Source: Escherichia phage T7
Sequence record: LR745708
Strand: one strand, 5' to 3'
Length of the DNA: 40,606 nucleotides
Positions 24,006-40,606 of the stretch are shown here, in pieces (the stretch's first letter is position 1; the number at the start of each line of letters is the position of its first letter). Under the pieces are notes generated by a model, which ran no database searches, had not been told where the DNA came from, and worked only from the letters and a program-made list of their open reading frames with translations. The position numbers and the translations under genes were made by a program.

Positions 24006-24160
24006 TGCTGGGGGTGGCCTCAACGGTCGCTGCTAGTCCCGAAGAGGCGAGTGTTACTTCAACAGAAGAAACCTTAACGCCAGCACAGGAGGCCGCACGC
24101 ACCCGCGCTGCTAACAAAGCCCGAAAGGAAGCTGAGTTGGCTGCTGCCACCGCTGAGTAA
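22968..24160 (+). CDS. 10B: Gene 10B minor capsid protein (-1 frameshift extension of 10A)
   Basis: Shifting to the -1 frame at the GGTTTTC region (~23988-23993) gives ...FQSGVMLGVASTVAASPEEASVTSTEETLTPAQEAARTRAANKARKEAELAAATAE, ending at TAA 24158-24160. Confidence 0.8.
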
Positions 24161-34552: not shown

Positions 34553-34572
34553 TACGACTCACTATAGGGAGA
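34550..34572 (+). promoter_or_regulatory. T7 promoter phi17
   Basis: taatacgactcactatagggaga overlapping the gene 16 stop. Confidence 0.9.
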
Positions 34573-34624
34573 GGCGAAATAATCTTCTCCCTGTAGTCTC
34601 TTAGATTTACTTTAAGGAGGTCAA

Positions 34625-36682
34625 ATGGCTAACGTAATTAAAACCGTTTTGACTTACCAGTTAGATGGCTCCAATCGTGATTTTAATATCCCGTTTGAGT
34701 ATCTAGCCCGTAAGTTCGTAGTGGTAACTCTTATTGGTGTAGACCGAAAGGTCCTTACGATTAATACAGACTATCGCTTTGCTACACGTACTACTATCTC
34801 TCTGACAAAGGCTTGGGGTCCAGCCGATGGCTACACGACCATCGAGTTACGTCGAGTAACCTCCACTACCGACCGATTGGTTGACTTTACGGATGGTTCA
34901 ATCCTCCGCGCGTATGACCTTAACGTCGCTCAGATTCAAACGATGCACGTAGCGGAAGAGGCCCGTGACCTCACTACGGATACTATCGGTGTCAATAACG
35001 ATGGTCACTTGGATGCTCGTGGTCGTCGAATTGTGAACCTAGCGAACGCCGTGGATGACCGCGATGCTGTTCCGTTTGGTCAACTAAAGACCATGAACCA
35101 GAACTCATGGCAAGCACGTAATGAAGCCTTACAGTTCCGTAATGAGGCTGAGACTTTCAGAAACCAAGCGGAGGGCTTTAAGAACGAGTCCAGTACCAAC
35201 GCTACGAACACAAAGCAGTGGCGCGATGAGACCAAGGGTTTCCGAGACGAAGCCAAGCGGTTCAAGAATACGGCTGGTCAATACGCTACATCTGCTGGGA
35301 ACTCTGCTTCCGCTGCGCATCAATCTGAGGTAAACGCTGAGAACTCTGCCACAGCATCCGCTAACTCTGCTCATTTGGCAGAACAGCAAGCAGACCGTGC
35401 GGAACGTGAGGCAGACAAGCTGGAAAATTACAATGGATTGGCTGGTGCAATTGATAAGGTAGATGGAACCAATGTGTACTGGAAAGGAAATATTCACGCT
35501 AACGGGCGCCTTTACATGACCACAAACGGTTTTGACTGTGGCCAGTATCAACAGTTCTTTGGTGGTGTCACTAATCGTTACTCTGTCATGGAGTGGGGAG
35601 ATGAGAACGGATGGCTGATGTATGTTCAACGTAGAGAGTGGACAACAGCGATAGGCGGTAACATCCAGTTAGTAGTAAACGGACAGATCATCACCCAAGG
35701 TGGAGCCATGACCGGTCAGCTAAAATTGCAGAATGGGCATGTTCTTCAATTAGAGTCCGCATCCGACAAGGCGCACTATATTCTATCTAAAGATGGTAAC
35801 AGGAATAACTGGTACATTGGTAGAGGGTCAGATAACAACAATGACTGTACCTTCCACTCCTATGTACATGGTACGACCTTAACACTCAAGCAGGACTATG
35901 CAGTAGTTAACAAACACTTCCACGTAGGTCAGGCCGTTGTGGCCACTGATGGTAATATTCAAGGTACTAAGTGGGGAGGTAAATGGCTGGATGCTTACCT
36001 ACGTGACAGCTTCGTTGCGAAGAACGAATACAGCCTGTGGGACATCAAGTTTCGCCCGGCTGCGCTCGACCCGCGCGGCATGACGCTGGTTGCCGGCGCG
36101 TTTTGGGCAGACATCTATCTGCTAGGCGTCAACCACCTGACCGATGGCACCAGCAAATACAACGTGACAATTGCAGATGGTAGTGCATCACCTAAGAAAT
36201 CTACCAAGTTCGGTGGAGACGGCAGCGCGGCCTACAGTGACGGAGCTTGGTACAACTTCGCTGAGGTCATGACTCATCACGGTAAGCGCCTGCCTAACTA
36301 CAACGAATTCCAGGCGCTGGCTTTCGGCACGACCGAGGCTACGTCCAGCGGCGGCACCGACGTGCCCACCACCGGCGTGAACGGCACGGGCGCAACGAGT
36401 GCGTGGAACATCTTCACGTCCAAGTGGGGCGTTGTGCAGGCGTCCGGTTGCTTGTGGACGTGGGGTAACGAGTTCGGCGGCGTGAATGGCGCATCCGAAT
36501 ACACGGCCAACACTGGCGGCAGAGGATCGGTGTACGCCCAGCCCGCTGCTGCGCTATTCGGCGGCGCCTGGAACGGCACGTCGCTCTCGGGTTCTCGCGC
36601 TGCGCTCTGGTACAGCGGGCCGTCGTTCTCGTTCGCGTTCTTCGGGGCGCGCGGCGTCTGTGACCACCTGATTCTTGAGTAG
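34625..36682 (+). CDS. 17: Chimeric tail-fibre protein: T7 gp17 residues 1-466 fused to a heterologous ~219-aa C-terminal receptor-binding domain (Mtd-like C-type-lectin fold with DGR variable region)
   Basis: 685-aa ORF against 553 aa for native gp17 as I recall. Translation is T7 gp17 up to ...GGKWLDAYLRDSFVAK (codon 466, nt 36020-36022), then diverges into GC-rich sequence NEYSLWDIKFRPAALDPRGMTLVAGAFWADIYLLG...GARGVCDHLILE. Confidence 0.9.
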   Translation: MANVIKTVLTYQLDGSNRDFNIPFEYLARKFVVVTLIGVDRKVLTINTDYRFATRTTISLTKAWGPADGYTTIELRRVTSTTDRLVDFTDGSILRAYDLNVAQIQTMHVAEEARDLTTDTIGVNNDGHLDARGRRIVNLANAVDDRDAVPFGQLKTMNQNSWQARNEALQFRNEAETFRNQAEGFKNESSTNATNTKQWRDETKGFRDEAKRFKNTAGQYATSAGNSASAAHQSEVNAENSATASANSAHLAEQQADRAEREADKLENYNGLAGAIDKVDGTNVYWKGNIHANGRLYMTTNGFDCGQYQQFFGGVTNRYSVMEWGDENGWLMYVQRREWTTAIGGNIQLVVNGQIITQGGAMTGQLKLQNGHVLQLESASDKAHYILSKDGNRNNWYIGRGSDNNNDCTFHSYVHGTTLTLKQDYAVVNKHFHVGQAVVATDGNIQGTKWGGKWLDAYLRDSFVAKNEYSLWDIKFRPAALDPRGMTLVAGAFWADIYLLGVNHLTDGTSKYNVTIADGSASPKKSTKFGGDGSAAYSDGAWYNFAEVMTHHGKRLPNYNEFQALAFGTTEATSSGGTDVPTTGVNGTGATSAWNIFTSKWGVVQASGCLWTWGNEFGGVNGASEYTANTGGRGSVYAQPAAALFGGAWNGTSLSGSRAALWYSGPSFSFAFFGARGVCDHLILE
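36023..36682 (+). other. Heterologous graft within gene 17 (GC-rich; Mtd-like domain)
   Basis: Abrupt rise in G+C and change of codon usage relative to flanking T7 sequence; the encoded C-terminus ...AALFGGAWNGTSLSGSRAALWYSGPSFSFAFFGARGVCDHLILE resembles, from memory, the BPP-1 Mtd variable-region end. Confidence 0.65.
36544..36680 (+). other. Putative DGR variable region (VR) with IMH-like 3' end
   Basis: ~135-bp stretch that is strongly adenine-poor, with many NNC codons (gcc, aac, ggc, ctc, tac, agc, ttc x4), ending in a GC-only run (ggggcgcgcggcg) and tctgtgaccacctgattcttgag. Confidence 0.6.
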
Positions 36683-36701
36683 CGGGGCCGAAAGGCCCCG
36701 C
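36682..36701 (+). promoter_or_regulatory. GC-rich hairpin with GAAA loop straddling the gene 17 stop (DGR target-recognition hairpin/cruciform-like)
   Basis: gcggggcc-GAAA-ggccccgc: a perfect 8-bp stem with a 4-nt GAAA loop, directly readable. Confidence 0.7.
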
Positions 36702-36723
36702 CAAGGCAACCGTACTCGAACCA

Positions 36724-36760
36724 CTAGCCCGCTCTTATCGGGCGGCTAGGGGTTTTTTGT
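36724..36760 (+). terminator. Putative terminator-like element (imperfect hairpin + G4T6)
   Basis: ctagcccgctcttatcgggcggctag forms an imperfect stem, followed by gggttttttg, which mimics the tail of Tphi (gaggggttttttg). Confidence 0.4.
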
Positions 36761-36784
36761 GATTTACTTTAAGGAGGTCAAATG
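36761..36784 (+). promoter_or_regulatory. Duplicated gene 17 ribosome-binding site driving trxA
   Basis: gatttactttaaggaggtcaaATG at 36761-36784 is identical to 34604-34627, the native gene 17 RBS and start. Confidence 0.9.
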
Positions 36785-37111
36785 AGCGATAAAATCATTC
36801 ACCTGACCGATGACTCTTTTGATACCGACGTGCTGAAAGCTGATGGTGCAATTCTGGTTGATTTCTGGGCAGAGTGGTGCGGCCCTTGCAAAATGATCGC
36901 TCCAATCCTGGACGAAATTGCGGACGAATATCAGGGTAAGCTGACTGTGGCCAAACTGAACATTGACCAGAACCCTGGCACCGCACCGAAATACGGTATC
37001 CGTGGCATCCCAACTCTGCTGCTGTTCAAAAACGGTGAAGTGGCAGCAACCAAAGTAGGCGCTCTGTCTAAAGGCCAACTGAAAGAGTTCCTGGACGCCA
37101 ACCTGGCTTAA
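36782..37111 (+). CDS. trxA: Thioredoxin 1 (E. coli TrxA, identical protein), inserted into the phage genome
   Basis: 109-aa product [109 protein letters not shown] with the CGPC active site; not a T7 gene. Confidence 0.97.
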
Positions 37112-37172
37112 TGATTGGTAAATCACAAGGAAAGACGTGTAGTCCACGGATGGACTCTCAAGGAGGTACAAG

Positions 37173-37376
37173 GTGCTATCATTAGACTTTAACAACGAAT
37201 TGATTAAGGCTGCTCCAATTGTTGGGACGGGTGTAGCAGATGTTAGTGCTCGACTGTTCTTTGGGTTAAGCCTTAACGAATGGTTCTACGTTGCTGCTAT
37301 CGCCTACACAGTGGTTCAGATTGGTGCCAAGGTAGTCGATAAGATGATTGACTGGAAGAAAGCCAATAAGGAGTGA
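37173..37376 (+). CDS. 17.5: Gene 17.5 holin
   Basis: GTG at 37173 after AGGAGG; 67 aa with a hydrophobic core, MLSLDFNNELIKAAPIVGTGVADVSARLFFGL... Confidence 0.85.
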   Translation: MLSLDFNNELIKAAPIVGTGVADVSARLFFGLSLNEWFYVAAIAYTVVQIGAKVVDKMIDWKKANKE

Positions 37377-37381
37377 TATGT

Positions 37382-37651
37382 ATGGAAAAGGATAAGAGCC
37401 TTATTACATTCTTAGAGATGTTGGACACTGCGATGGCTCAGCGTATGCTTGCGGACCTTTCGGACCATGAGCGTCGCTCTCCGCAACTCTATAATGCTAT
37501 TAACAAACTGTTAGACCGCCACAAGTTCCAGATTGGTAAGTTGCAGCCGGATGTTCACATCTTAGGTGGCCTTGCTGGTGCTCTTGAAGAGTACAAAGAG
37601 AAAGTCGGTGATAACGGTCTTACGGATGATGATATTTACACATTACAGTGA
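37382..37651 (+). CDS. 18: Gene 18 terminase small subunit
   Basis: ATG at 37382; 89 aa MEKDKSLITFLEMLDTAMAQRM...; ORF-track start 37373 is an upstream extension. Confidence 0.85.
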   Translation: MEKDKSLITFLEMLDTAMAQRMLADLSDHERRSPQLYNAINKLLDRHKFQIGKLQPDVHILGGLAGALEEYKEKVGDNGLTDDDIYTLQ

Positions 37652-37692
37652 TATACTCAAGGCCACTACAGATAGTGGTCTTTATGGATGTC
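37652..37692 (+). promoter_or_regulatory. RNase III processing site R18.5
   Basis: tatactcaaggccactacagatagtggtctttatggatg hairpin motif. Confidence 0.5.
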
Positions 37693-37745
37693 ATTGTCTA
37701 TACGAGATGCTCCTACGTGAAATCTGAAAGTTAACGGGAGGCATT

Positions 37746-38177
37746 ATGCTAGAATTTTTACGTAAGCTAATCCCTTGGGTTCTCGCTGGGATGCTATTCG
37801 GGTTAGGATGGCATCTAGGGTCAGACTCAATGGACGCTAAATGGAAACAGGAGGTACACAATGAGTACGTTAAGAGAGTTGAGGCTGCGAAGAGCACTCA
37901 AAGAGCAATCGATGCGGTATCTGCTAAGTATCAAGAAGACCTTGCCGCGCTGGAAGGGAGCACTGATAGGATTATTTCTGATTTGCGTAGCGACAATAAG
38001 CGGTTGCGCGTCAGAGTCAAAACTACCGGAACCTCCGATGGTCAGTGTGGATTCGAGCCTGATGGTCGAGCCGAACTTGACGACCGAGATGCTAAACGTA
38101 TTCTCGCAGTGACCCAGAAGGGTGACGCATGGATTCGTGCGTTACAGGATACTATTCGTGAACTGCAACGTAAGTAG
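37746..38177 (+). CDS. 18.5: Gene 18.5 spanin (Rz-like, inner-membrane component)
   Basis: 143 aa with an N-terminal transmembrane segment (LIPWVLAGMLFGLGWHLG). Confidence 0.85.
   Translation: MLEFLRKLIPWVLAGMLFGLGWHLGSDSMDAKWKQEVHNEYVKRVEAAKSTQRAIDAVSAKYQEDLAALEGSTDRIISDLRSDNKRLRVRVKTTGTSDGQCGFEPDGRAELDDRDAKRILAVTQKGDAWIRALQDTIRELQRK
37861..38112 (+). CDS. 18.7: Gene 18.7 spanin (Rz1-like), embedded in 18.5 in another frame
   Basis: 83-aa ORF nested inside 18.5; contains a lipobox-like LICVATISGCAS. Confidence 0.7.
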   Translation: MSTLRELRLRRALKEQSMRYLLSIKKTLPRWKGALIGLFLICVATISGCASESKLPEPPMVSVDSSLMVEPNLTTEMLNVFSQ

Positions 38178-38198
38178 GAAATCAAGTAAGGAGGCAAT

Positions 38199-39959
38199 GT
38201 GTCTACTCAATCCAATCGTAATGCGCTCGTAGTGGCGCAACTGAAAGGAGACTTCGTGGCGTTCCTATTCGTCTTATGGAAGGCGCTAAACCTACCGGTG
38301 CCCACTAAGTGTCAGATTGACATGGCTAAGGTGCTGGCGAATGGAGACAACAAGAAGTTCATCTTACAGGCTTTCCGTGGTATCGGTAAGTCGTTCATCA
38401 CATGTGCGTTCGTTGTGTGGTCCTTATGGAGAGACCCTCAGTTGAAGATACTTATCGTATCAGCCTCTAAGGAGCGTGCAGACGCTAACTCCATCTTTAT
38501 TAAGAACATCATTGACCTGCTGCCATTCCTATCTGAGTTAAAGCCAAGACCCGGACAGCGTGACTCGGTAATCAGCTTTGATGTAGGCCCAGCCAATCCT
38601 GACCACTCTCCTAGTGTGAAATCAGTAGGTATCACTGGTCAGTTAACTGGTAGCCGTGCTGACATTATCATTGCGGATGACGTTGAGATTCCGTCTAACA
38701 GCGCAACTATGGGTGCCCGTGAGAAGCTATGGACTCTGGTTCAGGAGTTCGCTGCGTTACTTAAACCGCTGCCTTCCTCTCGCGTTATCTACCTTGGTAC
38801 ACCTCAGACAGAGATGACTCTCTATAAGGAACTTGAGGATAACCGTGGGTACACAACCATTATCTGGCCTGCTCTGTACCCAAGGACACGTGAAGAGAAC
38901 CTCTATTACTCACAGCGTCTTGCTCCTATGTTACGCGCTGAGTACGATGAGAACCCTGAGGCACTTGCTGGGACTCCAACAGACCCAGTGCGCTTTGACC
39001 GTGATGACCTGCGCGAGCGTGAGTTGGAATACGGTAAGGCTGGCTTTACGCTACAGTTCATGCTTAACCCTAACCTTAGTGATGCCGAGAAGTACCCGCT
39101 GAGGCTTCGTGACGCTATCGTAGCGGCCTTAGACTTAGAGAAGGCCCCAATGCATTACCAGTGGCTTCCGAACCGTCAGAACATCATTGAGGACCTTCCT
39201 AACGTTGGCCTTAAGGGTGATGACCTGCATACGTACCACGATTGTTCCAACAACTCAGGTCAGTACCAACAGAAGATTCTGGTCATTGACCCTAGTGGTC
39301 GCGGTAAGGACGAAACAGGTTACGCTGTGCTGTACACACTGAACGGTTACATCTACCTTATGGAAGCTGGAGGTTTCCGTGATGGCTACTCCGATAAGAC
39401 CCTTGAGTTACTCGCTAAGAAGGCAAAGCAATGGGGAGTCCAGACGGTTGTCTACGAGAGTAACTTCGGTGACGGTATGTTCGGTAAGGTATTCAGTCCT
39501 ATCCTTCTTAAACACCACAACTGTGCGATGGAAGAGATTCGTGCCCGTGGTATGAAAGAGATGCGTATTTGCGATACCCTTGAGCCAGTCATGCAGACTC
39601 ACCGCCTTGTAATTCGTGATGAGGTCATTAGGGCCGACTACCAGTCCGCTCGTGACGTAGACGGTAAGCATGACGTTAAGTACTCGTTGTTCTACCAGAT
39701 GACCCGTATCACTCGTGAGAAAGGCGCTCTGGCTCATGATGACCGATTGGATGCCCTTGCGTTAGGCATTGAGTATCTCCGTGAGTCCATGCAGTTGGAT
39801 TCCGTTAAGGTCGAGGGTGAAGTACTTGCTGACTTCCTTGAGGAACACATGATGCGTCCTACGGTTGCTGCTACGCATATCATTGAGATGTCTGTGGGAG
39901 GAGTTGATGTGTACTCTGAGGACGATGAGGGTTACGGTACGTCTTTCATTGAGTGGTGA
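38199..39959 (+). CDS. 19: Gene 19 terminase large subunit
   Basis: GTG at 38199 after AGGAGG; 586 aa [19 protein letters not shown]... Confidence 0.95.
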
Positions 39960-40040
39960 TTTATGCATTAGGACTGCATAGGGATGCACTATAGACCACG
40001 GATGGTCAGTTCTTTAAGTTACTGAAAAGACACGATAAAT

Positions 40041-40063
40041 TAATACGACTCACTATAGGGAGA
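40041..40063 (+). promoter_or_regulatory. T7 promoter phiOR
   Basis: taatacgactcactatagggaga. Confidence 0.9.
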
Positions 40064-40217
40064 GGAGGGACGAAAGGTTACTATATAGATACTGAATGAA
40101 TACTTATAGAGTGCATAAAGTATGCATAATGGTGTACCTAGAGTGACCTCTAAGAATGGTGATTATATTGTATTAGTATCACCTTAACTTAAGGACCAAC
40201 ATAAAGGGAGGAGACTC

Positions 40218-40367
40218 ATGTTCCGCTTATTGTTGAACCTACTGCGGCATAGAGTCACCTACCGATTTCTTGTGGTACTTTGTGCTGCCCTTGGGTACGC
40301 ATCTCTTACTGGAGACCTCAGTTCACTGGAGTCTGTCGTTTGCTCTATACTCACTTGTAGCGATTAG
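40218..40367 (+). CDS. 19.5: Gene 19.5
   Basis: ATG at 40218 after GGGAGGAG; 49 aa MFRLLLNLLRHRVTYRFLVVLCAALG... Confidence 0.7.
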   Translation: MFRLLLNLLRHRVTYRFLVVLCAALGYASLTGDLSSLESVVCSILTCSD

Positions 40368-40439
40368 GGTCTTCCTGACCGACTGATGGCTCACCGAGGG
40401 ATTCAGCGGTATGATTGCATCACACCACTTCATCCCTAT

Positions 40440-40606
40440 AGAGTCAAGTCCTAAGGTATACCCATAAAGAGCCTCTAATGGTCTATCCTAAGGTCTATAC
40501 CTAAAGATAGGCCATCCTATCAGTGTCACCTAAAGAGGGTCTTAGAGAGGGCCTATGGAGTTCCTATAGGGTCCTTTAAAATATACCATAAAAATCTGAG
40601 TGACTA
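40440..40606. repeat. Right-end short CCTAAAG-like repeat region, ending immediately before the right terminal repeat
   Basis: cctaaggt..., acctaaagataggcc, cacctaaagaggg repeats; window ends ...aaatctgagtgacta, the sequence I recall directly preceding the terminal repeat. Confidence 0.6.

Follow-up and report, generated by a model that had tools for sequence, protein, structure and literature searches.

A target-recognition module of the BPP-1 DGR at the 3' end of the chimeric tail fibre gene of a laboratory-built T7 phage

The DNA analyzed here, referred to as the window, is a stretch of 40,606 nucleotides deposited as Escherichia phage T7 (LR745708), in which gene 17 is chimeric. Its product joins residues 1–466 of T7 gp17 to residues 163–381 of BPP-1 Mtd, and a sister record of the window annotates the equivalent product as a chimaeric tail fibre. 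Mtd 163–381 matches the window with 100% identity at 36023–36679, placing the junction at residue 467 of the chimera (tblastn). The following features were identified in this region, with the basis for each in brackets:

34625–36682, plus strand: chimeric gene 17, 685 aa, with the TAG stop codon at 36680–36682 (ORF listing)
36023–36712, plus strand: BPP-1-derived graft, from a synthetic g-block (alignment to AY029185.2)
36524–36712, plus strand: 189-bp unrecoded block, 100% identical to native BPP-1 (exact-match extension and alignment)
36544–36677, plus strand: 134-bp variable repeat VR1 (no difference from VR1 as annotated in AY029185.2, the BPP-1 reference allele)
36643–36656, plus strand: (GC)14 element of the IMH, CGGGGCGCGCGGCG (coordinates and VR/TR identity)
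36657–36677, plus strand: 21-bp IMH element, TCTGTGACCACCTGATTCTTG, the last part of the VR (VR/TR comparison; definition of PMC3240598)
36678–36681, plus strand: 4-nt spacer AGTA, from the end of the VR to the hairpin (sequence)
36682–36701, plus strand: hairpin/cruciform element (folds, uniqueness in the window, no variation among four natural BPP-1-type phages)
36713–36760, plus strand: synthetic T7 RNA polymerase terminator of Temme et al. (sequence identified in PMC9256728)
36782–37111, plus strand: E. coli trxA selection marker, downstream of the graft (ORF; equivalent annotated in LR745707 and LR745709)

The T7 reference V01146 matches the window up to position 36022 with three point differences, and the replacement of 36023–37113 is the only other change. 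One of the three is the phAG_3-specific 24876 A>G, and the junction at Mtd residue 163 is that of the phAG_3 design (Grigonyte et al., 2020, Viruses 12:193, PMC7077284). On the evidence of the fusion junction and this diagnostic SNP, the window is the engineered phage T7 phAG_3 of that study. The supplement of that paper prints an mtd g-block whose last parts are IMH, hairpin and terminator, exactly the tail seen in the window; the design of the trxA marker is described in the same paper (PMC7077284).

The other phages of this study (PRJEB35760; LR745707 and LR745709) share with the window the T7 backbone, the fusion point after gp17 residues 1–466, trxA and the cassette of IMH and hairpin. 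Unlike the window, LR745707 contains Mtd from K171 and is without the 48-nt terminator, whereas LR745709 carries the Yep-phi C-terminus with the cassette only. Among the differences on the side of the window are a C>T at 36400, which is silent, and a C>A at 36723. The latter change affects the terminator, on the same g-block and outside the DGR target, and the altered terminator is predicted to fold as RNA at -20.8 kcal/mol, versus -27.9 kcal/mol for the canonical sequence. LR745709 has no Mtd coding sequence; its cassette, consisting of CTT, (GC)14, IMH, hairpin and 11 nt, directly follows the TAA stop codon of the Yep-phi fibre gene (gp17) and was joined there by a purpose-made Gibson primer (PMC7077284). 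The T7-Mtd chimeras were all non-infective (PMC7077284).

In the graft, mtd codons 163–381 and their stop are followed by native BPP-1 downstream DNA of 30 nt; the graft has a G+C content of 0.63–0.68 versus approximately 0.46 in its flanks. Compared to native BPP-1 (AY029185.2), it contains 25 differences in the range 36052–36523, all of which (25/25) are silent, and these recodings destroy a NotI site at 36521/36523. Every one of them lies upstream of 36524, so that the recoding ends just short of the block identical to BPP-1. This 189-bp block, which was aligned with BPP-1, vB_BbrP_003, BMP-1 and BIP-1, holds the VR, the IMH, the spacer and the hairpin, plus 11 nt extending to where the avd start codon is located. 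Identity to BPP-1 thus runs from 20 bp upstream of the VR to 35 bp downstream of it. An earlier note on this DNA had suggested that the graft was designed or inherited as a DGR target, and the native sequence across this entire interval bears out the inheritance.

The VR differs from the BPP-1 TR at 22 positions, and upstream of the IMH all differences (17/17) sit at TR adenines, as in a BPP-1-type target. The (GC)14 element, to which 3' cDNA integration has been mapped in BPP-1 (Guo et al., 2011, PMC3240598), is identical to both the VR and the TR copies of BPP-1, again as in a target site. The 21-bp IMH element marks the recipient copy (definition in PMC3240598). It has five mismatches to the IMH* of the TR, at VR positions 120, 124, 126, 127 and 128, and the window bears these five VR-type bases exactly as the BPP-1 VR does; after it come the final two sense codons and the stop, reading ..GAG TAG. 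What the earlier note had called IMH-like is in fact an exact IMH, inside the 189-bp block. The GC-only run described there is present as well, but it is 14 nt long, the proposed start at 36650 is internal to it, and the quoted 13-nt string lacks the leading C.

By itself the GC run is statistically unremarkable, because the graft has 63–68% G+C: GC-only runs of at least 14 nt occur in 70% of composition-preserving block shuffles. As its signal is not significant for the local composition, the argument rests on the BPP-1 identity, and it is the base-for-base match across 189 bp that makes the run non-chance. The natural relatives BMP-1, BIP-1 and vB_BbrP_003 show variation in the VR, at TR-adenine positions, but none in (GC)14, IMH, spacer or hairpin.

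The hairpin consists of the stem GCGGGGCC (36682–36689), the loop GAAA (36690–36693) and the stem GGCCCCGC (36694–36701). It had been placed immediately after the stop codon; the note was right about the perfect 8-bp GC stem with its GAAA loop, but the element overlaps the TAG by one base, the first base of the stem being the G of the stop codon, which straddles the boundary of spacer and stem. The predicted stable stem-loop was confirmed by folding 36682–36701, both as DNA (-11.4 kcal/mol, z = -4.68, with 0/200 shuffles equally stable) and as RNA (-19.1 kcal/mol, z = -4.66). It is the sole perfect 8-bp stem with a 3–6 nt loop in the 40.6-kb window, and none of 200 block shuffles produced a 4-nt loop on an 8-bp stem made of G and C alone.

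Hairpins of BPP-1-type targets have a GC-rich stem of 7–10 bp and a 4-nt loop 5'-GRNA on the sense strand, and lie 4 bp from the VR; the requirement for target sequence in BPP-1 extends no further than +24, equivalent to position 36701 of the window (PMC3240598). In the window an all-GC stem of 8 bp carries a GAAA loop, which fits 5'-GRNA; the stem-loop, which begins at 36682 behind a VR whose last base is 36677, stops at 36701, exactly +24. The TR flank has no hairpin. Cruciform extrusion has been observed in supercoiled DNA only (PMC3240598), whereas T7 DNA is linear, which counts against a working target in this genome. For a DGR reconstituted in E. coli, efficient editing likewise depends on the stem-loop (PMC12875486). 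The proposal that the locus carries the DGR cis elements, an IMH with a downstream hairpin of 4-nt loop, holds for every BPP-1 requirement of PMC3240598. Since BPP-1 identity runs from VR -20 bp to VR +35 bp, comparison with the BPP-1 IMH and hairpin gives a match at all positions of proven importance (Guo et al., 2011, PMC3240598).

We searched the window for the remaining parts of a DGR. A second copy of the template repeat was not found in the window, as the BPP-1 TR matches the VR alone (36544–36662, 85.7%; sensitive blastn), and a repeat search of the window yielded no VR-sized direct repeat. Comparison of BPP-1 Brt and Avd with the window gave only chance matches (E ≥ 0.38, tblastn). Of a complete (autonomous) DGR, the window thus lacks the TR, Brt/Avd and adenine-specific diversification. 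BPP-1, the g-block and LR745707 all have the same VR as the window, and a different one occurs only in the natural phages BMP-1 and BIP-1; because of this identity, there is no sign of past diversification in the lineage. Without TR, avd and brt, the element is an orphan target, which, judging from its sequence, could be diversified only by a BPP-1 DGR acting in trans.

The feature is real, already characterized in BPP-1, and man-made here. It is almost certainly the cis-acting target-recognition module of the BPP-1 DGR, copied unchanged into a laboratory-built T7 on the synthetic mtd g-block (phAG_3). In order, the module comprises the VR, the IMH ((GC)14 and the 21-bp recipient-specific element), the 4-nt spacer and the 8-bp GC stem with its GAAA loop. 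Its mechanism is established in BPP-1 and would presumably be the same in the window. In BPP-1, Brt and Avd reverse-transcribe the TR RNA into adenine-mutagenized cDNA; the IMH marks the VR as the recipient, with the 3' integration point within (GC)14; the downstream hairpin/cruciform, whose GRNA loop is restricted as to both its size and its sequence, lifts homing efficiency approximately 1000-fold; and 5' integration is completed via upstream VR/TR homology. Hairpin formation and retrohoming have been demonstrated with this same sequence, both in Bordetella and on plasmids (PMC3240598), and in E. coli (PMC12875486). In the T7 genome the module is expected to stay inert in the absence of a trans-supplied BPP-1 DGR.

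Other origins and functions of the element were considered. A natural recombinant between T7 and a Bordetella phage, with a working DGR, would account for BPP-1 sequence within a T7 genome and for nothing more, and its probability is negligible: the graft has 25 silent recodings with a NotI site removed, it is followed by the synthetic Temme T7 terminator and then E. coli trxA, it matches a published g-block together with the phAG_3 SNP, and no TR, avd or brt was found in the window. Virtually no weight can be given either to a chance GC-rich palindrome and GC run in a GC-rich insert. The shuffles readily reproduce the GC run, but never the all-GC stem with its 4-nt loop, and chance is excluded by the exact 189-bp BPP-1 identity together with the invariance across natural relatives. 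These two readings were rejected, the former on the engineered features and the latter on the BPP-1 identity.

A role of the hairpin as RNA, either as transcription terminator or as a 3' mRNA-stabilizing stem-loop for chimeric gene 17, is suggested by its very stable GNRA-type tetraloop structure (-19.1 kcal/mol) right at the stop codon, but is highly improbable. Intrinsic and T7 class I terminators combine a stable stem-loop with an immediate U-run, which is absent here (the next bases are CAAGGCAACCG). An intrinsic terminator scan did not call the hairpin, and its one terminator-like site lies inside an ORF, at background frequency; a sigma-70 promoter scan found no promoter-like sites. In an Rfam scan of 36300–37200 nothing matched at the hairpin, and the sole match was a sub-threshold TrxA 5' UTR thermometer at the trxA start (24.7 bits versus a gathering score of 58). 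At 12 nt downstream of the hairpin the designers provided a T7 terminator for the purpose, and the demonstrated role of the hairpin in BPP-1 is DNA target recognition (PMC3240598). Somewhat less improbable, though still unlikely, is that IMH and hairpin are passive passengers, copied along with the mtd 3' end and some short downstream DNA and never a DGR target. The constructs are described as protein-domain fusions testing trxA selection only, and the text of Grigonyte et al. (2020) makes no mention of the IMH, the hairpin, the terminator or DGR targeting (PMC7077284); furthermore, the IMH encodes the last Mtd residues and is therefore unavoidable in any Mtd C-terminal fusion. Against this stand the presence of CTT, (GC)14, IMH, hairpin and 11 nt in LR745709, by way of a dedicated primer and in a phage without Mtd coding sequence, and the recoding of the g-block, which ends exactly before the VR block.

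Retention of the BPP-1 target module was thus most probably deliberate, to give a trans-supplied DGR a landing pad; we infer this intent, also put forward in the earlier note, from the synthetic g-block, the recoding confined to positions upstream of 36524 and the LR745709 cassette. With regard to design, the recoding stops before the identical block, and the cassette in LR745709 stands bare behind an unrelated Yep-phi gene. A further step can be offered only tentatively: the cassette may be an undocumented, deliberate DGR landing pad through which phAG_3 and its sisters could be diversified at the tail-fibre tip by an avd-TR-brt plasmid in E. coli. DGR reconstitution in E. coli prefers targets that are co-directional with the replication fork. 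Gene 17 is presumably co-directional with the rightward T7 fork (taking the position of the T7 origin from general knowledge), and the orientation would for this reason be favorable for diversification. If the landing pad is real, retrohoming of the natural type, mutagenic and dependent on the IMH, would take place in the genome of a virulent coliphage within a lytic cycle of less than 20 minutes.

The practical value of these observations is in annotation, as the element marks out the window as engineered. In the deposited T7 chimeras there are DGR target signals that look functional, along with a synthetic T7 terminator, none of which the publication describes, and these phages, the infective Yep-phi one included, could be ready-made recipients for BPP-1 DGR systems reconstituted in E. 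coli.

Few DGR cis elements are as well characterized as the BPP-1 IMH and hairpin, and the copy in the window is a verbatim transplant that is biologically nothing new. From VR -20 to +35 it is base-for-base the same as the BPP-1 DGR target site (Doulatov et al., 2004; Guo et al., 2011, PMC3240598); in BPP-1, however, avd-TR-brt starts at the next base, where the window has the synthetic T7 terminator and trxA instead. A cassette of (GC)14, IMH and stem-loop placed behind a gene turns that gene into a DGR recipient (PMC3240598, PMC12875486), and the heterologous targets built in this way, the aph3'Ia reporter (Guo et al., 2011) and the kanR pTarget in E. coli (PMC12875486), follow the same principle as the window. 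In those systems a matched TR was supplied and editing was shown, whereas the window has no donor. DGRec, which combines the BPP-1 RT with recombineering (bioRxiv 10.1101/2025.03.24.644984), likewise aims to diversify the receptor-binding protein of a coliphage using parts of the BPP-1 DGR, but unlike the window it does not need the IMH and hairpin, and it was applied to lambda GpJ and not to T7.

The chimeric gene 17 of the window, a fusion of T7 gp17 with part of Mtd from Bordetella phage BPP-1, ends in the canonical BPP-1 DGR target module, an already known element carried here by a published synthetic phage. The features of this region, including the variable repeat (VR) and the element for initiation of mutagenic homing (IMH), are listed below.

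Features of the gene 17 region in the window
34625–36682, + strand: chimeric gene 17 ORF, 685 aa (ORF listing)
36524–36712: 189-bp native block with VR1, stop codon, hairpin and 11 more bases
36544–36677: annotated 134-bp VR1 (AY029185.2 annotation)
36643–36656: GC-only 14-mer CGGGGCGCGCGGCG (exact coordinates)
36657–36677: 21-bp IMH element TCTGTGACCACCTGATTCTTG
36680–36682: TAG stop codon
36682–36689: 5' hairpin stem GCGGGGCC
36690–36693: hairpin loop GAAA
36694–36701: 3' hairpin stem GGCCCCGC
30 nt after the Mtd graft: native BPP-1 downstream DNA
36713–36760: synthetic T7 terminator (Temme et al.), 48 nt (sequence identified in PMC9256728)
36782–37111: E. coli trxA, with a ribosome-binding site (ORF; annotation in sister records)

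Within window 35800–37200, the reading frame closes with ...GGG GCG CGC GGC GTC TGT GAC CAC CTG ATT CTT GAG TAG, followed by CGGGGCCGAAAGGCCCCGC. An earlier note had placed a GC run and hairpin at 36650–36701; the bases are present, but 36650 lies inside the GC run and not at its edge. The perfect 8-bp GC stem with a GAAA loop also stands, but does not start immediately after the stop codon, as its first base is the G of TAG.

A blastn search with 35990–36790 against phage records matched the Bordetella phages BPP-1, BMP-1, BIP-1 and vB_BbrP_003, as well as two engineered T7 records, LR745707 and LR745709. By alignment and exact-match extension, all 189 bp of 36524–36712 are identical to BPP-1 AY029185.2, and the last 11 bases of this block reach the avd (bbp7) start position in BPP-1. 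The VR differs from the BPP-1 template repeat (TR) at 22 positions: 17 lie upstream of the IMH, all 17 at TR adenines, and the remaining five fall in the 21-bp element (VR positions 120, 124, 126, 127, and 128). The published IMH comprises a 14-bp GC-only sequence, (GC)14, that is the same as in the TR, and a 21-bp sequence with five mismatches to the TR that determines which way information is transferred (PMC3240598); the 14-mer and 21-bp element of the window fit this definition exactly. BMP-1 and BIP-1 depart from BPP-1 in the VR at adenine-templated positions, and none of these phages varies in (GC)14, IMH, spacer, hairpin or the 11 nt after it. In the alignment of these natural relatives, the TR flank is without a hairpin. 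The observation is confirmed, and the reading of the GC run and hairpin as DGR cis elements is supported.

Experiments in BPP-1 identified 8-bp inverted repeats that form a hairpin or cruciform, 4 bp from the VR, of which the stem structure and GC-richness matter and the stem sequence is irrelevant; stem disruption lowers tropism switching >1000-fold, and the target requirement ends at +24, with nothing further downstream needed (Guo et al., 2011, PMC3240598). In the window the last VR base is 36677 and the hairpin occupies 36682–36701, so +24 is exactly the final stem base. Because the element is the wild-type sequence, the comparison with BPP-1 proposed earlier shows agreement in every one of these required features. 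In E. coli, GC14, IMH and stem-loop behind a target gene permit editing by a rebuilt BPP-1 DGR, and deletion of the stem-loop impairs editing severely, but not fully (PMC12875486).

The hairpin 20-mer folds perfectly as DNA (−11.4 kcal/mol, z = −4.68; 0/200 shuffles as stable), in agreement with the stable stem-loop predicted for 36682–36701. It is the sole perfect 8-bp stem with a 3–6 nt loop in the whole window, and 200 block shuffles gave no all-GC 8-bp stem with a 4-nt loop. GC-only runs of at least 14 nt occurred in 70% of shuffles, because the local G+C is 0.63–0.68, and the GC run by itself is not improbable. At the level of sequence, we regard identity to the known BPP-1 element as the decisive argument against chance; a chance palindrome or GC run is excluded by the shuffle test, the 189-bp identity and the invariance across natural relatives. 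Folded as RNA the hairpin reaches −19.1 kcal/mol, but a function as RNA-level terminator or stabiliser is unlikely: no U-run follows it, the terminator scan passed over it, Rfam gave no match at the hairpin, and a dedicated terminator stands downstream.

The T7 promoter family is present in the window, which is collinear with T7 V01146 over 1–36022 with only three differences and over 37114–40606 with none; fibre swap, terminator and trxA together account for the whole size difference from T7. Gene 17 runs to codon 466 and continues with Mtd residues 163–381 (protein identity 100%). Relative to native mtd the graft has 25 differences, all silent and all within 36052–36523; most exchange G/C for A/T at third codon positions, with a cluster at 36169–36295. 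Changes at 36521 and 36523 destroy a NotI site (GCGGCCGC>GCGGCAGA), and none of the 25 falls in the VR-IMH-hairpin block. The annotation of LR745707 gives a chimaeric tail fibre of T7 gp17 1–466 and BPP-1 Mtd, and that of LR745709 the equivalent T7 fusion with Yep-phi gp17.

A silent C>T at 36400 (AGC>AGT, Ser), outside the VR, sets the graft apart from the printed g-block, LR745707 and native BPP-1, and is absent from the SNVs given in the source paper. At 36765–36811 Rfam gave a match to the TrxA 5' UTR thermometer below threshold (24.7 bits vs gathering score 58, E = 0.15), which probably reflects no more than the start of trxA and its engineered RBS. The window end, 40606, equals T7 39777; the right-hand 160-bp terminal repeat is missing and the left copy (1–160) present, probably through assembly collapse.

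Both sister records stem from Grigonyte et al. (2020, Viruses 12:193, PMC7077284; project PRJEB35760), where phAG_3 is described as gp17 1–466 plus Mtd 163–382 (Table S4) with a single SNV, 24876 A>G (Table S6), and the printed mtd g-block ends ...GATTCTTGAGTAGCGGGGCCGAAAGGCC(C)CGCCAAGGCAACCG, then the terminator (supplement). Both the Mtd-163 junction and the A>G at T7 24876 (window 24877, gene 12, K>R) occur in the window; judged by this junction, the SNV and the g-block tail, the window is phAG_3 or an equivalent isolate. The silent recoding, the loss of the NotI site, the synthetic terminator, the trxA marker, and the agreement with both the g-block and the phAG_3 SNP rule out a natural T7 recombinant. 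None of the T7-Mtd chimeras was infective, and propagation needed wild-type gp17 in trans (PMC7077284).

Two further departures of the window from V01146 are an extra A at 1896 and a T at 24158; LR745707 shares the 24158 base, which suggests a lab-stock difference. LR745707 joins gp17 K466 straight to Mtd K171 (locus position about 2530), and its SNVs 742, 1897–1900 and 19560 match phAG_4, whose start Table S4 puts at Mtd 170, one residue off the deposited record (PMC7077284). The 48-nt terminator (36713–36760) sits between chimeric gene 17 and trxA/17.5/18/19, and no T7 promoter of the window's repeat families was found between the gene-17 promoter (34553–34577) and 40044–40068. A C>A at 36723 opens a terminator stem pair (RNA −20.8 vs −27.9 kcal/mol for canonical), and LR745707 lacks exactly the 48 terminator nt. 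Selection for continued expression of trxA and the packaging genes may have favoured such weakening or loss.

In the window, blastn of the TR matched the VR only, and tblastn of Avd (accessory protein) and Brt (DGR reverse transcriptase) yielded chance matches only (E at least 0.38). The window, LR745707, the g-block and BPP-1 all share one VR sequence, and therefore no diversification has taken place in this lineage. Being without TR, Avd and Brt, and with its VR undiversified, the element is an orphan DGR recipient site. With the machinery supplied, Brt/Avd would convert TR RNA into adenine-mutagenised cDNA, the 3' end of information transfer would map within (GC)14, the 21-bp IMH would mark the window copy as recipient, and the hairpin would promote homing. 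This target mechanism is established elsewhere for the identical sequence; for T7 we infer it.

In the current view, the cDNA anneals when the sense strand is single-stranded as lagging-strand template, and the stem-loop makes this open state last longer; targets co-directional with replication have an advantage of 7.6- to 24.6-fold in adenine-mutation rate and of up to 44-fold in repair frequency. With the primary origin of T7 at about 15% of the genome and gene 17 transcribed rightward, the site would be co-directional with the rightward fork, an orientation that appears favourable. The short lytic cycle, host shut-off, and degradation of plasmid and host DNA might count against function in T7, as might its linear topology, because cleavage of the same cruciform by T7 endonuclease I in vitro needed supercoiling, having been obtained on supercoiled plasmids (Guo et al., PMC3240598). 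T7 endonuclease I is encoded by the window's own T7 gene 3 (about 10258–10707).

Since IMH, hairpin, terminator and DGR targeting find no mention in the paper or supplement of Grigonyte et al. (2020), we infer the design intent. The g-block recoding ends 20 bp before the VR and leaves the whole VR-IMH-hairpin block native, thus preserving homology to the BPP-1 TR. LR745709 is without Mtd coding sequence and reads CTTCGGGGCGCGCGGCGTCTGTGACCACCTGATTCTTGAGTAGCGGGGCCGAAAGGCCCCGCCAAGGCAACCG directly after its own TAA stop; the joint that the pAG_32 Gibson primers TCTTAGTTCGAACTAACTTCGGGGCGCGCGGCG and complement create, 3 nt ahead of (GC)14, is exactly this one (PMC7077284 supplement). Because recoding stops before the VR and the cassette (IMH and hairpin) recurs in LR745709 without Mtd, it was likely designed as a DGR target, a cloning leftover being a minority possibility. 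The suggestion that the graft was designed or inherited as such a target agrees with the native block and the reuse of the cassette. The one mildly new point concerns the deposited phages: they contain a complete DGR landing pad and a T7 terminator, neither of which the publication describes, and could potentially serve as recipients for BPP-1 DGR systems of the kind that now work in E. coli. The LR745709 joint treats the 73-bp IMH and hairpin segment as a portable module, and Guo et al. used IMH and hairpin likewise in their heterologous targets (PMC3240598).
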